This document shows, piece by piece, positions 31,271 to 41,261 of a stretch of 64,000 nucleotides of DNA. A model generated the notes under the pieces. It was not told the DNA's origin and ran no database searches. It was given only the letters and a program-made list of their open reading frames with translations. The stretch's first letter is position 1; each line of letters starts with the position of its first letter. Origin of the DNA: Gekko japonicus (lineage: Eukaryota); contig NW_015167563.1 in assembly GCF_001447785.1 (NCBI RefSeq), positions 303,297 through 367,296 on the forward strand. Direction: 5' to 3'. The position numbers and the translations under genes are program-made.

Positions 31271-32766
31271 CTTCCAGATGATGTTAATTACTTCCATACC
31301 ATGGAGAGCTTCAGGTACTCATTTCCACACTTGACTTGACGCCTCTATTTCTCCAGGCTTATTGACAACCATACACCCATGTCTTCTGTAATTAACACAT
31401 ATGTAAAATCCACACCATTGATAGAGACTTGTTCTTTAAATGCCCACACTATGAGGTGGCACGTAGAGAGATTATCACTCCACTGATAGGAAAAAACCCT
31501 CAGGTCTGCCAGAAAAAACTAAACCTGAATTTCTTTTAATTGACAAACATCCCAAGATTACTCATCAAGTAGCCAGGTTCTGTAAGGTGATACTTAGGTC
31601 ACGGAAAATGTTTAGTGGTTAGTTGTAAGTGTAACTTTTATGCTAGTCTCGGATGCATTTTACTTGGAAGCATTTTATTTTATATTTTAAAAAATTTATA
31701 TTAGTTTTTAAATTTTCTGGAATGCTTTATCTTTAATACATACATACATACATATATATATATATATATGTAAGCATATCTGGTCTAAGGACTGTAATAG
31801 ACTGTAATTCAACAACCCTCGGCTTTGGCCGTTGGGCCGGGGGACGGTTTTGCCGCCCAGAATAGAGAGGCAGGCCAGCAGTTTGGGTGTGAAGAAGCCC
31901 ATACGGGGATTTGAGGGAGGAGGGGCCAGAGAGAATAAAAGGCTGGCCCCTCCTAGCCTCGTCAGCAGTCCCGGTTAGTTGTCGACGCGGAGGAGCTCGT
32001 CGGCGAGGTCGGGATTTTTAGGGCCTGCCTGCCGGTTGCACGCTGCAGAGCTCCTCTGCAGTCCAACGCATGGTTCTGGTTTGTGCTGGCTGCCCGGCAG
32101 CGTTAGGGGTGTGGCAGCGCAGCGAGCGAGGATCGGTGGAGGCCACTGGGCAGTTGGGCTGCCAAACAAGCATGCGCATCGCAGTGCAGCGGCAGCTCGA
32201 GGCCACGAGGGGTGGCTTGGCGGCGTTGGATCGAATCAAGGTGGCGCCTGTGCGGGGGCCGCCTCGCGACAATGGGTTTGCAGGCCGTTGGCCCAGCGTG
32301 GTATTTGATAGTGGGATGGTGAGGTCGGATGCTGGAAGGCCCTGCTGATTGCTTCGGGGGTGTTGAGGGAGCTTAGGTGTGTTGCGGCCATACACTGGGG
32401 AGCTGGGCAGGACGCCTACCTCAGGTGCTCGTTGAGGCCAGGGTTTTTCTGGCTTGAGCCCCAACCCACCAACCCCCCTCCCGCACGATAGCGAATTCCT
32501 GAGAACTCTGGGTGAGCGTGTTAGGGTTTTGGCTTCTGGGATCTGTGGTTTTTCGGAGGGCACGCAGTGGTTTTCATTTAGTGGCCATCTGGGGAGTGTA
32601 GGGGCCCAGTCATGTGGCACCCGGGGCAGCCATTTTGTGCAATGGGTCCGGGTGGCCATTTTGTCTTGCCAGGTGGTGCGGTTTCACTTTTGTTTTTTGA
32701 GCTTGAAAATTGTGAATAGTAGGATGTGGCCTGCTCTACTGGCAGTGAGTAGCCAGCAGGAACACT

Positions 32767-33980
32767 ATGGCTCCCAAAAAAGGTACCGGTCGGTCAAAAG
32801 GGAAGCAGCCTGCCCCTAAGCCACCTCCAAAGCATCCAGCTCCGGCACCTTCTTCGTCTGATGACGAAGCTTATGGGGTCCAGCAGGCCATCTGGGACCG
32901 TTTGCAGGCAGTGGAGACGGCTGCAGGCTTGTCCACGCCATTATCAAGGCCTGTGGGTGGGGCAACGGGCAGAAAGGAGACGCGTTCTGCTGCCAATAAG
33001 AGATTTCAGGCCGAAGTGTTGACTTGTTTATCTCTTGTAGAAGGGCGTACTGTTGCAGCTGCAGCCAGGGAGGATGGGGCCTCTGGATCTCAGGATGGCA
33101 GAGGCCGTGGCTGGCCCTTCTTCTTTGTTGGCTGGTAAGTGCTGCACACACCACCCAGGATTCAATTGGCCCTGGGGCCGCCTGGCACAGGTAGGTTTGG
33201 TGGCTAATCTCAGCACAATGGCATGCGGTCATGGCTGCGGTGGTTCTGCCCCGCCCAGTGCCTCTCAAGTAGCTTTCAATACAACACCACTGCAGGGCAA
33301 CACCCCTAGTACACCTTGGTGGGGAGGGCCCTCGCCCTGCGGCGTGTCTTATTCACAGGCCCCAGCTGCCACTCTCCCTTTTGGCAACCTGGCCCTACCG
33401 CTGGGTAATCATCCTCTCCCTGCCACCAGAGATAGGATTTGCAGGGGGGAATATGTAGATGTTTTTAGCCTTTTGTACAGGGAACTTGAAAAAAAGGAGA
33501 AGGAGGATCTCGAGGACCGTGATAAAGAGAAGTATAAGAGGATGAAAGTCGATAAAACCTGGGCCAATTGGGTGGCAGGATTTGTAGTATATGCAGGGGT
33601 GCTATCCAAGGCTCAGCCTCCTTGTTTCAGTATTTTGATATTGTTTACAAGGGATACACAGGCTTCACTGGCCCCACCTGGCTCCAGTATGACAAGGAGT
33701 TCAGGATGCTCACTGCTATGAACACTTCGTTAAGATGGGATCAGATCCACCCTCATCTCTGGTTGCAAGTCATGGTGTCCTCTAGACCAAATACTGGGGA
33801 TAGATCCCATAGTGGACATTTGGTGGAGCGTTTGTCTGCCCCATTTAGTCCCTGCCTTCAGGCGGGGCGGGTGGTTCAACACCGCCAGATTTGCTGGGAA
33901 TTTCGGGCCCAGGGAGTGTGTAATCGGAAGGCTTGCCCATATAGGCATGAGTGACCCCTCTGCGCCAGCCCGCACCCCTT
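32767..33980 (+). pseudogene. Ngaro ORF1 (gag-like) with C-terminal Cys/His zinc-finger motifs; frameshifted
   Basis: RICRGEYVDVFSLL; W..W...F..Y; WLQYDKEFR; ICWEFRAQGVCNRKACPYRHE*PLCASPH. Confidence 0.8.
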
Positions 33981-35588
33981 CTCTGCTTGCTTCCGGGGAA
34001 AATCCCGATGGGGGCGACGGCGACCGGAGGGGGGCAGTCCCAGCCAGGCTCCTGGAAAGGGGGCCAACGCCCATACATTTGAAAGTGCTTGAGGGTTTGT
34101 TACGGGGTTATCCTAGGCAAGTGGACAATTTATATTTGTTGAATGGTTTTTCACAGGGTTTCCATATTTCTTTCCAAGGGGTGAGGGCTCCATTTATGGT
34201 GAATAACCTCAAATCTTTATGGGGTTTGGAGCATGAGGTCAAGAAAAAGATTGATAAGGAATTGAGGGAAGGTAGGGTCCTGGGGCCTTTCCCTTCCCCC
34301 CCTTGCCCTAACCTTCAGGTTTCCCCTCTAGGTATTGTGCCCAAGAAAGCACCCAGGGAGTTCAGGCTTATACATCACCTGTCATATCCAAAGGGGGGCT
34401 CTGTTAATGATGCCATCCCGGAGGAATTGTGCTCAGTTAGGTACACGTCATTTGATCAAGCTGTGCACATTGTACACCGCTGTGGCAGGGGTGTTGAAAT
34501 GGCAAAATGCGACATCAAGTCGGCATTTTGCCTCCTACCTGTGCACCCGGATGACTTCGAGCTCCTTGGTTTTTGCTTTGAGGGTCAGTTTTACTTAGAC
34601 AGGGCCTTGCCCATGGGCTGCTCAGTTTCTTGCGCCACTTTCAAGCATTTTAGTTCATTTTTTGAGTGGGGGGTTTGCATGCGCTCGGGTTTAGGCTGGT
34701 TAGTGCATTATTTAGATGATTTTTTGTTTGTAGGCCAACGTGGGTCTGGGCAGTGTGAGCAGTTAATGCATTCCTTTTTTACACCGGCTGATGAGTTAGG
34801 CGTGCCTTTAGTGCACGAGAAGACTGAGGGTCCTGCTCAGGGGCTTACCTTCCTGGGGGTGGAACTAGATTCAGTGGCCCAGACTTCCCAGCTGCCCGCT
34901 AAGAAATTGGAGAAGCTGTGTGGTCGTATTCGGGATTTTTTGGGCAAGCGAAAGGCCACTTTGCGGGAGCTGCAGCAACTGGTGGGTCATCTGAATTTCG
35001 CGTGTAAGGTGGTGGCACCTGGCCGTGCCTTTTTGCACAGGCTGTGTGCGGCAATGGCTGGGCTGTGGCTCCCACACCATAGGGTCCGGATTACGGCTGA
35101 TATCCATCAAGATTTGGAGATGTGGCTGGAGTGTCTTACTTCTTTCAATGGCATTTCCTTTTGGAGGGATGATCTCCGATTGGAGGCGGAACTCCAGGTT
35201 CACTCCGACGCGGCAGGCTCAGTGGGTTTCGGGGTATACTTCTGGGGGCACTGGTGTGCCGAGCCTTGGCCTGTGGACTGACAGCCAACCTGACCTTCCT
35301 GGAATTTTTTCCTATTTTGGCAGCGGTCTACCTGTGGGGGGGGAGTTGGCTAACCACACGGTACATTTTTGGTCCGATAACCTCGCGGTTGTGCAAATCA
35401 TCAATTCCCTTTCATCCAGGTCTTCCCGTGTCATGCAATTGGTCAGGGCCTTTACACTTCGTTGCCTTCAGCTAAACATATTGTTTTTCGCCAGGCACGT
35501 ACCAGGGGTGGACAATGGGGTGGCTGACGCTCTCTCTCGTAAACAGATGGAGAGGTTTCGTCAGCTGGCCCCAGACGCCGACTTGTAA
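33812..35588 (+). pseudogene. Ngaro reverse transcriptase / RNase H
   Basis: FRLIHHLSYP, KCDIKSAF, LPMGCSVS, HYLDDFL; RNase H HSDAAGSVGFG, FWSDN, DNGVADALSR. Confidence 0.92.
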
Positions 35589-35611
35589 CCGGTGCGGATG
35601 CCCACAAGGCT

Positions 35612-36794
35612 GTGGTTGGCTGGAGGGCAGAAGTGCGCAGGGCAATAGGACTAGCCATAGCACCAAACACCAAGGGAGCTTATGACCGTGCAGTCATGCA
35701 GTTTACGGAATTTAGATGGGAGGTAGGGTATCCGGACGCATGGCCCATCCCACTGAACCATCTATTACATTTTTGTGTGGCGGCAAAAGGTAAGGGTATG
35801 GCAGTGAGCTCGATCAGAGGTTTGTTATCTGCATTGGCTTATACTAGCCGGGCGCGCGGATTGGAGGACCAGATCAGGGACTTTCAAACACGTAAGATGT
35901 TGGACGGTTGGGCATGTGAGGCAGGACATCAGGGGGACCCCAGGCAACCCATTTCTCCCAAAGTGCTGCACGGCCTGCAGGCGGTGTGGAGGGATGTTTG
36001 CTCTTCCGNNNNNNNNNNNNNNNNNNNNNNNNNNNNNNNNNNNNNNNNNNNNNNNNNNNNNNNNNNNNNNNNNNNNNNNNNNNNNNNNNNNNNNNNNNNN
36101 NNNNNNNNNNNNNNNNNNNNNNNNNNNNNNNNNNNNNNNNNNNNNNNNNNNNNNNNNNNNNNNNNNNNNNNNNNNNNNNNNNNNNNNNNNNNNNNNNNNN
36201 NNNNNNNNNNNNNNNNNNNNNNNNNNNNNNNNNNNNNNNNNNNNNNNNNNNNNNNNNGATGTTTGCTCTTCCGAGGCTGAGGCCACCCTGTTCCACGCAG
36301 CCGCGCTGGTTGCCTTTTTCGGGGCTTTCCGCATTGGTGAACTGGTTGCTCAAACAAAAAAGGATGATTCTGGCAGGGCGTTATTGTTGCAAGATGTAAA
36401 GCTAGGTGTGCTTAAGGCTTCCATTACACTGCGGCAATCAAAAACTGATCAGCGCCGGCGAGGCATGGTGGTTGAGCTGGGCACTTGCGCGGAGAAGCAG
36501 CTGTGCCCGGTGACAGCTTTAGCCTCCTACCTGGCAGTGAGGGGAGTAGGTGAAGGTCTGCTGTTTCGGCACAGTGATGGCACACCTTTGACAAAACACC
36601 AGTTTTGGTCTATTACAAATAAGGCATTAGCGAGATTGGGGCTAGCAGGAAGGAGATTTTGTAACCATTCTTTTCAGATCAGCGCTGCTTCTGCGGCAGT
36701 GGCTATGGGATACACAGCAGGTAATATCCAGAGGCTGAGGCGATGGCGATCTGGGGCCAACAAGGGCTATGTTTGTCCATTGTTGGGACGCTAG
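35612..36794 (+). pseudogene. Tyrosine recombinase (spans an assembly gap)
   Basis: AFFGAFRIGEL, SKTDQ, LCPV, HSFQI (HxxR altered), RWRS...Y. Confidence 0.9.
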
Positions 36795-36851
36795 TAGCCG
36801 GTCGTCATAGTTCAATTCCAATGCCTCGCTTAACTGTTTTTTCTGTTCTAG

Positions 36852-37410
36852 GTTTGATTGCTTGGCAGGAGAGGAAGATGGTTTTAATCTGCAGGCACAG
36901 TTTTGTTTTTTGGGCGGCTCACCGCGCCAGATGAGCGCCGATTGGCACACAGCTGGGCCTCAGCCAGTGGGCAGATGTTGAGTGGCGTGGGCACCGGGGT
37001 TTGCAGTGGCCGGGCCTTCTGCAGTTGTTGTTCCAGGAAAGGTCGGCCCTCCGCCACAGGTTTTAGTTATCCATTTAGGAGGAAACGATTTGGGCTTAGA
37101 AAAAGGGAAGGCGTTTATCCTGCAAGCCCGTGACGATTTTCAGCTGATCCGCAGGCAATGACCGGATACCCTCATTGTGTGGTTGGCAATCATGCCGCGT
37201 AGAGTCTGGCGTGGAGCTATGAGTCAGTTGGCAATCAACAAGGCATGCTGGAAGGCAAACCGAGAGTTGCAGAGGATTCTTGAGGGCGGTTTGGGCATCT
37301 TTTTGCCCACCCGGCTATCCATGCAGGGCGGGCTGAGCTGTATTGGCAGGACGGGATCCACCTGTCGGAAATGGGCATGGACATCTTCCTGGATGACCTG
37401 CAGCAAGGGC
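36852..37410 (+). pseudogene. SGNH/GDSL hydrolase ORF of the Ngaro element
   Basis: Block I ICRHSFVFW, block II WRGHRG, block III IHLGGNDL (~37066-37092), block V DGIHLS (~37350-37367), across frameshifts. Confidence 0.85.
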
Positions 37411-38335
37411 TTCGGGGGGCCTTGGGCCTCCCGTTGGGTGCGAAGGCCTACAGCAGAGGCTTGGCCTTGGTGGTGGCCGGGTTATAGGCGGTATATAGCT
37501 TGCGGTACGGTGAGCACCAGCCGACACCCATTATTTGGGTTGAAGGAGTCATGTGAGTACAGTCTTTGTGCCTTGTGGCACGGTGGCGGTGAAAACAGAC
37601 TGCCTTTGGGACCACCCCATTTGGGCCCTCCCTTTGAGCCTAGCAGCTCGGGGATTGGGCCTACGGGGTTATCCCGCAATGGTTAGCCGGCCGGGTGCGA
37701 GCCACTGATGTTGGCTACCACCTGGGGCAGGGTGGCTCACCCTAATTCATGAGTTAAAGAGGGGTCATGGACCCCTGGCCTTGACCATACCGCAGAAACT
37801 GTTTTGCCTTTGCCGTTGGTTCCAGAGAAGTTGTAGTTAATAAAGTGGCCCAATGTTTAAATCCAGCAATGTGTCTGCCTCGTTATTCCATCTTAGGGGG
37901 CAAATAAACTGAAACTGAATCCACACCATAGCTGTACTTGTTTTGAGCTAGGTTATCAGATATTTCATATAAACATACAAAGCTGCCTTATTCCTACTAT
38001 GTCTATCTAACAATGCTGGAGTGGATCCTATCCCTGTTCCACTTTGTTTGTTGTTTATTATAATATGAGTGCCCCTTTCCTTTTTGGCTTGGGTCTGAAG
38101 TCTTCCTCCAGATTAAGTGTTTCTTCCATTGGAGGAAGAGCCACTTACACTAGAGGGAAACTCCTTAGGATAGAGGGAGGCTTCTTGGAAGATGGCTGGG
38201 TCCATCCCATCATCAACTGGAAGCAGCTTTCTATGATCTGGGGTTGAGATTTTTCAAGAGACAGGACTATTTTTACTTCAGGCCTTTTGGGCAACCTTAC
38301 CTAGGAGTGGTATTTTCATTAAGTTGGTTAATCAG

Positions 38336-38996: not shown

Positions 38997-41261
38997 CTCT
39001 TTTTTTTATTTAAACTTTTATTATCGGGATATTACAATCCATCTTAAACAATCACACATTTTATCAAATAGTTCAAATATCCCATTTTCTATTACACCCC
39101 CATATCCACCCCCTTGCTTGGCTTCCCGCAATGCTTATATCCAGTTATCTATTTACTCTTAACATATTCCATCTTTATTTTTCTGTTAATCACTTTCTTA
39201 AAACTTTTATTTTTTACTCACTATATTCTATATCTTATATCTTATCATCAGGTAACCTCATTCTATTTGACTATAGATTACTTAATTTCTAATACTCTTC
39301 AAAACACAATAAGTTGTTTGTAACATTCCAGTTGGTCTCCAAGTATTGTTTAAAGTCTTTCCATTCTACAAAAAAGTTTTCGTCCTCTTGATTGTTTAGC
39401 TTTCTTGTGATTCTGTCCATTTCAGCCATAAACACAACTTTTTTAATCCAATCCCATTTTTCTGGTATTTTATCTTGTTTCCAATATTGCGCATAAGTCA
39501 TTCTCACAGTAGTAATCAAATACCAAAATAAAGTTCTTTTGGTAACATTCAATTCTTCCATTTTCAAACCCAACAGCATTATTTCAGGCTCTTTTTTAAA
39601 AGTACATTTTAAAATACACTGCATTTCATTATGGACCTCCGTCCAAAAGTTATTCGCTTTTTCGCAACTCCACCACATATGATAAAATGAACCTTCCTGT
39701 TTCTTACATTTCCAACATTTACTAGACATATTATCATTCATATTTGCAATCTTTTTCGGTGTCATATACCATCTATACATCATTTTAAAACAATTCTCCC
39801 TTAAATTATTACAAGTCAAAATTTTAATGGATTTTTTCCACAACCACTCCCATGATGACATTGTAATTTCTTTGTTCATATTAACTGCCCATTTTAGCAT
39901 TTGCTCTTTTACTGTTTCATCCTCAGTATACCATGTTAACAAAATCTTGTAAATCTTAGATATCATTTTACTCCCATTTTCCTCCCATACCCCCTCCATC
40001 TCATTATTTTTCTCTCTAAAACCATATTTTTTCTTGTCACTCTCATATAAGTAATAGATCTGCCAGTAATTGAACCAGTCATATTCAAAGTCTAATTCTT
40101 CTTTCTTCTTTATTTCAAAATTCTTTCCTTCTTTTTTCAAAATGTCTCTATACATAAGCCAATCTTCACCTTTTTGTTTTGAAAGTGGATTTATAACTTC
40201 CGCCGGTACAATCCAAAGTGGTCTCTCTCCGAAGAAATTTTTTTTATATTTATTCCATGTGTCAAATAACGATCTTCTTATGTAATGGTGTTTAAAAAGA
40301 TTGTCCATTTTTTCTTTACCATACCATAAATATGCATGCCATCCAAATCTACAATTAAATCCTTCTAATGCCAATATTTTACTGTTGTCTAAACTTATCC
40401 ATTGTTTTATCCACGTTAGGCATACTGCCTCATGATAAAGCCTCAGATTCGGTAATTGTAATCCTCTTTCTTTTGCATCGCATAGAATCTTCCTTTTGAT
40501 CCTCAGTTTTCGTCCCGCCCACACGAATCTCGATATTTCCTTTTGCCACATGTTAAATGTCTTTACTTCTTTTACAATCGGTATTGTTTGAAACAAAAAC
40601 ATTAAACGGGGCAGGATATTCATTTTCACTGCTGCTATTCTCCCCAGCAATGACAGATTTAAGGTGTCCCATTTTTAAATGTCTTGTTGTATTTCATTCC
40701 ATAACTCTTCATAATTATTTTTTTTAAAAGGTCAATATTCTTCATTATTAATTCAATTCCTAGCTACTTTACTTTCTTTACAACCTCACATTTTATTTTT
40801 TCTTGTAACTTTGTTTGCCTTTCTTTTGTCATATTTTTACAGAGCATCTTAGTCTTATTTTTATTAACATAAAATCCAGCCAAATCTCCAAATTCATTTA
40901 TTGTTTCCATTAACACCGACATGTTAGCCATTGGTTCTTCTATTACAAACATCACATCGTCTGCAAAGACCCTATACTTATAGTTTTTCTTGTAACTTTG
41001 TTTGCCTTTCTTTTGTCATATTTTTACAGAGCATCTTAGTCTTATTTTTATTAACATAAAATCCAGCCAAATCTCCAAATTCATTTATTGTTTCCATTAA
41101 CACCGACATGTTAGCCATTGGTTCTTCTATTACAAACATCACATCGTCTGCAAAGACCCTATACTTATAGGAAAAATTTCTTATCTTCAATCCTATAATG
41201 TTGTTATCTTCTCTTACCTTCGTCAGCAGAATTTCCAAAATCCATATAAACAACAATTGTC
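38997..41261 (-). mobile_element. 5'-truncated L1/Tx1 LINE ORF2
   Basis: FADDV RT motif, 453-aa ORF with CWKC...YHMWWSC; 16-bp TSD gcctaatgttctctct (38981-38996, 41262-41277). Confidence 0.92.
40797..41170. repeat. Apparently identical 187-bp tandem duplication within the L1
   Basis: Identical translated segment in ORFs 40764..40955 and 40978..41256; 187-bp offset. Confidence 0.9.

Follow-up and report, generated by a model that had tools for sequence, protein, structure and literature searches.

Probable leader splicing in squamate Ngaro retrotransposons: likely joining of an ORF1 leader to an SGNH hydrolase and, probably, to the tyrosine recombinase

The stretch of DNA analyzed here, 64,000 nucleotides of Gekko japonicus (contig NW_015167563.1, positions 303,297 to 367,296; hereafter the window, numbered from its first letter), carries at 31808-37903 on the plus strand a decayed copy of a Ngaro-like tyrosine-recombinase (YR) retrotransposon, with an A1...B1 layout and without an A2-B2 tail. 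Alignment with sister copies places its start at about 31808 and its finish at 37903-37906. A preliminary description of the locus proposed that the element may splice the N-terminal part of its Gag-like first open reading frame (ORF1) onto an SGNH hydrolase encoded near the 3' end. The analysis described below argues for leader splicing of this kind in squamate Ngaro elements, with the hydrolase and probably also the recombinase as recipients. The features of the element are as follows, with a slash in a motif marking the predicted exon boundary.

31808..32028 (+): 5' A repeat, which recurs 3' of B1 in L047, L051, L063 and L064
32767..33134 (+): coding part of the putative shared first exon, the ORF1 leader (basic, proline-rich N-terminus, two predicted helices, linker)
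33135..33140 (+): predicted donor site GTAAGT, which has phase 1 where copies are intact
33135..33954 (+): Gag-like core of ORF1 (read-through product), frameshifted here, with a Cys/His motif at its end
33734..35588 (+): reverse transcriptase (RT) plus RNase H, ORF2, frameshifted here; PF00078 at E 1.9e-8, RVT_3 weak at E 0.17
35523..35546 (+): putative further acceptor, in phase 1 relative to the YR frame (gctgac...ctctctctcgtaaacag/A, which would open an exon at 35547)
35547..36794 (+): YR frame, broken up by a run of N at 36009-36257
35790..35795 (+): internal donor-like site 243 nt past the YR acceptor, possibly the end of a cassette exon
36829..36851 (+): predicted SGNH acceptor (branch-point-like cttaac, pyrimidine tract, AG)
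36852..37451 (+): SGNH hydrolase exon, broken here; intact copies have 199 codons past the split codon
37474..37903 (+): 3' B repeat, from sister-copy alignment, with AATAAA at 37839-37844

The window copy is a dead member of its family: Gag and RT are frameshifted, and the SGNH frame is broken, with RHS for GHS, two in-frame stops and two 1-nt deletions. The two sites in question are nonetheless present as first proposed. The donor reads CTG/GTAAGT at 33134/33135 and has phase 1 when read in the Gag frame 33041/33053. The acceptor reads cttaac-tgttttttctgttctag/G (cttaactgttttttctgttctag/G); its exon would begin at 36852, likewise with phase 1, here in the hydrolase frame. The frameshift that the preliminary description had noted 5' of the donor is also seen. 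The ORF1 start codon lies at 32767. Compared with the close copy L032, 41 nt are deleted at about 33098-33100, which leaves 368 nt between ATG and donor in place of the 409 nt found in L032, so that the window donor is phase 2 from ATG 32767.

The element holds 9 GTRAG[T/G] and 13 acceptor-like sites; of these, the two named above are the ones that family members retain in homologous places and in phase. The family was sampled by scoring the best 40 of 497 and the best 150 of 5349 candidate matches in the same genome; this gave 96 other SGNH-bearing copies, or 97 with the window, 5 of which were dropped for runs of N or an absent N-terminal match to leave 92 scorable copies. The acceptor AG is preserved in 34 of the 36 closest copies. 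The donor GT is preserved in all 21 copies with an aligned donor region (GTAAG in 19; another 15 lacked a credible alignment), and 15 of 18 copies have an ATG-to-donor length that gives phase 1, the three exceptions being frameshifted and stop-bearing. More broadly, the best acceptor lies 41 nt upstream of the G of the catalytic GHS in 83/92 copies and is phase 1 in 86/92, and the 33 N-free copies that have an ATG and 150 open codons all carry a phase-1 GTRAG 376-427 nt from the ATG. At the donor, 32 of 34 G-K pairs use GGT for glycine, versus 17 of 94 elsewhere in ORF1, which argues that the constraint acts on nucleotides. Clustering at 85% yielded 24 subfamily groups with nucleotide identity down to 56%, and conservation and phase of the sites hold across them: the SGNH acceptor is found in 23 of the 24, and of the 31 open-leader copies in the clustering set, 30 have a phase-1 donor, covering all 14 clusters with an open leader. 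Long open frames near some SGNH matches were considered as fusions and rejected, as they proved to be runs of N in the fetched loci. Near-identical young subfamilies with open SGNH frames were also seen (L134-L137 and L040/L041) and could serve as references in read mapping.

Protein searches recovered gene models with the predicted structure from other squamates. The closest named relatives are proteins of geckos, in keeping with the host. There are 21 leader-SGNH fusion models from 9 species, mostly "uncharacterized" RefSeq entries, and 9 leader-YR fusion models from 5 species; the junction of one of the former, P0030, reads ...APPSA-G-LVARQ (leader-G-SGNH). Three pairs of models join one leader to either an SGNH or a YR continuation: P0028/P0068 in Elgaria, P0019/P0103 in Eublepharis and P0056/P0108 in Anolis sagrei, with leader identities of 141/144, 137/138 and 167/167 residues, respectively. 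The paired leaders part exactly 14 residues ahead of GHS, matching the 41-nt prediction. In the Elgaria X1 isoforms (P0051, P0052), a 50-residue YR-derived cassette stands between leader and SGNH.

A further line of evidence comes from genomic copies in which the join is already made. When the Gekko genome was searched with the natural fusion model P0030, 141 of 144 matches began at or past the junction (residue 132 or later), and the other three spanned it. At these three loci (L225-L227), the leader end runs in frame into the SGNH exon without the Gag core, RT or YR, which is the join that the preliminary description had predicted. A DNA search found five joined loci among 40 scored matches (L225-L227, L234 and L236), which belong to a sister subfamily and not to that of the window. 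A full-length relative, L230, has gtaagc and ctaattacag exactly at the joined points, 3.4 kb apart; the parent-type GT is present at the join point in L230 and L238, and the AG in L230, L237 and L240. Loss of a 3.4-kb interior exactly at GT and AG fits reverse transcription of a spliced RNA, and we infer that the joined loci arose in this way. Four of the five also carry a chimeric 5' part from another subfamily (the fifth, L236, begins at a contig end). In these, a decayed 5' part of the L229 type switches near its SGNH start into about codon 77 of another subfamily's leader, an arrangement that suggests template switching between subfamilies.

The YR gene models pointed to a second acceptor, at window 35547, which had been missed in the preliminary description; its SGNH acceptor has stood, but its picture of a single acceptor has not. 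The second acceptor is CAG in 62 of 64 copies (those, out of 106, in which the anchor motif was found), again in phase 1. Upstream of this site, the YR frame stays open for no more than 0-7 codons, and it has no fixed Met. An in-phase donor within YR, at +243 (35790 in the window), is present in 34 of the 64 copies and in 19 of 28 in an alignment scan. One ORF1 donor is thus likely to feed two acceptors, and we consider splicing of the leader onto YR probable. A donor-like ACG/gtgagc just past the SGNH stop, at 37511 in the B repeat, is kept in 21 of 28 full-length copies.

The assignment of the hydrolase to the SGNH group was supported by profile and structure comparisons. The L048 copy matches PF13472 above the cut-off (E 8.3e-8), the best Foldseek matches are SGNH enzymes (E 4e-7), and the catalytic residues are well kept among 69 open frames (S in 68, GxND in 64, DxxH in 65). 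A PDB sequence search gave weak SGNH matches amid antibody noise, with ZfL2-1 (4c1b) at E 0.31. In the AlphaFold model of P0002, confidence is high for the SGNH domain and moderate for two leader helices (residues 35-54 and 72-95, pLDDT about 57-72), and the linkers are disordered. In the six models checked, the first 28 leader residues include 7-10 K/R and 0-1 D/E. The leader dimer prediction scored 0.03, and an ESM Atlas search with the leader returned no usable match.

RNA evidence was sought in three raw runs (3-12% of each examined) and one contig set, aligned to the window at 80%. The raw runs yielded 467, 21 and 216 reads and the contig set 65 contigs; diverged relatives account for nearly all of them, and among the 704 reads a single one was 99% alike. 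For related families, read ends fall at 37861-37867, and reads also pass out of B and on into A at 37903. The signal at the 3' end goes back to a different family, one that is non-coding and has the B repeat in common. A set of loci whose motif matches these 3' reads (L186-L205) forms a young family with the Ngaro B repeat (107 exact motif matches) and split direct repeats. These loci gave no RT, YR or Gag matches and show SGNH traces in 4 of 20 cases, and two of them at separate locations, L187 and L189, share 99.985% identity across 6485 nt. They are probably non-autonomous Ngaro derivatives that are still moving.

Some further properties of the window copy and its surroundings can be added. 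The YR of the window copy matches PF02899 (E 0.0075) and PF00589 (E 0.0013) below the cut-offs, and PF00589 is annotated on homologues. A Pfam scan of the Gag-like core gave nothing above cut-off; the ORF1 read-through product of intact copies is 455-469 residues long. No integrase was matched in the 12 window ORF pieces scanned, nor was a methyltransferase domain found by Pfam in the scanned pieces, and the RNase H frame closes at 35588. Compared with sister copies, the run of N at 36009-36257 adds length, and the sequences on its two sides share an overlap of 16 nt. Most of the close copies (L031-L066) finish at B1 (…GGGCAA), as does the window copy; A2 follows B1 directly in 3 of 36, and pieces of A2/B2 are present in 4. 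Elsewhere in the window, a 461-residue open frame on the minus strand (39289-40674), which we take to resemble the 3' part of a LINE-1-type ORF2, adjoins a 187-nt tandem duplication at 40791-41164.

We put the probability of the whole explanation, that squamate Ngaro elements splice their ORF1 leader onto SGNH and probably onto YR by alternative splicing, at about 0.85; splicing onto SGNH, taken by itself, is very likely. Several observations weigh against this explanation. The genomic copies are related by descent, and the counts given above are not independent trials. The gene models are automatic predictions that may rest on the same splice signals, and some models join other parts to SGNH: a YR fragment in P0017, the Gag core in P0027, YR in P0171 and other sequence in P0014. 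Because the joined loci have a common chimeric 5' part, all five probably stem from one retroposition that was later amplified, and they count as one event. Pattern searches returned no intron-less copy of the window's own subfamily with the SGNH join, and for an intron-less YR join they returned a single match, unrelated to the element. The YR acceptor lies within RNase H coding sequence, where CAG makes up 196 of 264 Gln codons, and its conservation is therefore weaker evidence. No in-phase RT acceptor was found among the 28 full-length copies scanned. Finally, the 33134-36852 junction was absent among the 13 joints listed from the RNA data, where a donor-bin depth of at most 0.08 gave little power.

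The hydrolase might instead be translated alone, whether ribosomes re-initiate, begin at an internal or non-AUG codon, or work on a transcript from an internal promoter; the splice-like sites would then be incidental. Several database proteins consist of SGNH alone, an upstream in-frame Met is present in 22 of 69 intact SGNH frames (the other 47 have none), and a Met lies between the exon start and GHS in 18 of 92 copies, the window included. The preliminary description had allowed for direct initiation at the ATG near 36878, but that ATG is polymorphic and is ruled out as a family start. Indeed, no independent start is conserved, and what the upstream non-coding sequences come to have in common is a pyrimidine tract and AG at a constant, in-phase spacing; the intron-less copies and the reciprocal gene-model pairs also oppose independent translation, which we judge very improbable. 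A different view accepts the splice as real and treats it mainly as a brake, the element's own or one exploited by the host, that diverts full-length RNA into a non-replicating form and yields the fusion protein as a minor product. Spliced RNA would indeed be without RT and YR, its retroposition is seen only as part of a chimera, and the family is weakly expressed in the sampled runs; yet a brake requires neither phase 1 on both sides nor the SGNH catalytic residues, and both are kept, which makes this view quite improbable.

The remaining alternatives concern which ends are joined, and how. The SGNH acceptor could be served chiefly by some other donor, either within YR (such as 35790) or in host exons, or YR could be reached by frameshifting. 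The conserved donor at +243, the Elgaria cassette isoforms and models such as P0017 and P0014 can be cited for the former, and a description of the YR ORF as frameshifted (PMC3783388) for the latter. However, the ORF1 donor is the one used in the intron-less copies, the cassette isoforms still begin with the leader, and the YR frame opens just 0-7 codons ahead of its acceptor; we find these options unlikely. The intron-less loci might also have arisen by DNA deletion at a short GGT microhomology, without any spliced RNA, given that 2-3 nt are common at the junction and that a single event is involved. This would require both breakpoints to coincide with independently predicted sites 3.4 kb apart and to keep the frame, and G/GT is in any case the usual splice-site consensus; deletion therefore seems very improbable.

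On the leader-splicing explanation, a phase-1 donor after about 125-142 ORF1 codons would be paired with phase-1 acceptors before the SGNH and YR frames. Unspliced RNA would serve for Gag and as genome, and spliced RNA would encode a leader-SGNH protein of about 335 residues and probably a leader-YR protein of about 465 residues, if these fusions are indeed made. The leader, with its basic tail and two helices, may tie each enzyme to the Gag/RNA particle, and the esterase may act at membranes, as has been proposed for ZfL2-1 ORF1p. We lean somewhat toward a programme like that of a complex retrovirus, in which one gag donor and several in-phase acceptors provide Gag, YR and esterase with a common particle-targeting leader, and in which leader-SGNH converges on ZfL2-1 ORF1p for membrane-linked steps. 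The notion of the leader as a targeting tag is more tentative, and we would give it rather less than an even chance. Splicing is a familiar device in the expression of foamy-virus pol and copia gag.

The presence of SGNH in Ngaro elements was already known, with its function unproven (PMC9210276, PMC7192593, PMC6681497); what would be new for this known element type is expression by leader splicing. The covered portions of PMC9210276 treat SGNH as a separate overlapping ORF and mention neither splicing nor introns, and those of PMC8547959, PMC3266345 and PMC9341512 do not mention element splicing. As the preliminary description had supposed, no account of Ngaro splicing was found in the literature searched, a body that excludes the main reviews, Repbase and supplements. 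In the cited literature, both the expression of the overlapping, start-less ORFs of DIRS order and the nature of the Ngaro SGNH ORF are unsettled. If correct, the splicing programme accounts for the expression of such ORFs in YR retrotransposons. Leader fusions would then be preferable to bare YR or SGNH ORFs in functional assays, and the recurring "uncharacterized" reptile gene models of 330-470 residues would be transposon splice products rather than host genes.

The closest known relatives in layout are the Xenopus elements DIRS-53_XT and DIRS-54_XT, which, as presented in the covered portions of PMC9210276, likewise have a Gag-like ORF, RT/RNase H, YR and SGNH after YR, and no methyltransferase, with split direct repeats as a probable further point in common; the squamate elements would differ in that SGNH and YR are probably exons spliced onto the ORF1 leader. 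The ORF1p of the LINE element ZfL2-1 (PMC3905857; PDB 4c1b) resembles the predicted leader-SGNH product in its basic N-terminal peptide or motif, helical segment, poorly conserved linker and SGNH domain. In ZfL2-1 ORF1p the esterase binds phospholipids. That protein is encoded by a single unspliced ORF1 of a non-LTR (long terminal repeat) element and forms a solved coiled-coil dimer, whereas leader-SGNH, known here from sequence and models, would acquire a similar layout through splicing. The preliminary description had drawn an analogy to retroviral env, and at the level of the mRNA this analogy is apt: LTR elements are stated to make spliced messages for ORF3 (PMC5408684), and in them, as in retroviruses, a spliced subgenomic RNA from which pol is absent serves to express a 3' ORF. 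In bdelloids, ORF3 can even encode a GDSL esterase (PMC5408684). The analogy does not extend to the product, which is predicted to be an SGNH fold with a disordered leader, closer in layout to ZfL2-1 ORF1p than to an envelope glycoprotein. The squamate case further differs from spliced ORF3 and env in that the element is a YR element, about 135 Gag residues would be retained in frame, and the donor is probably shared with the integrating enzyme.

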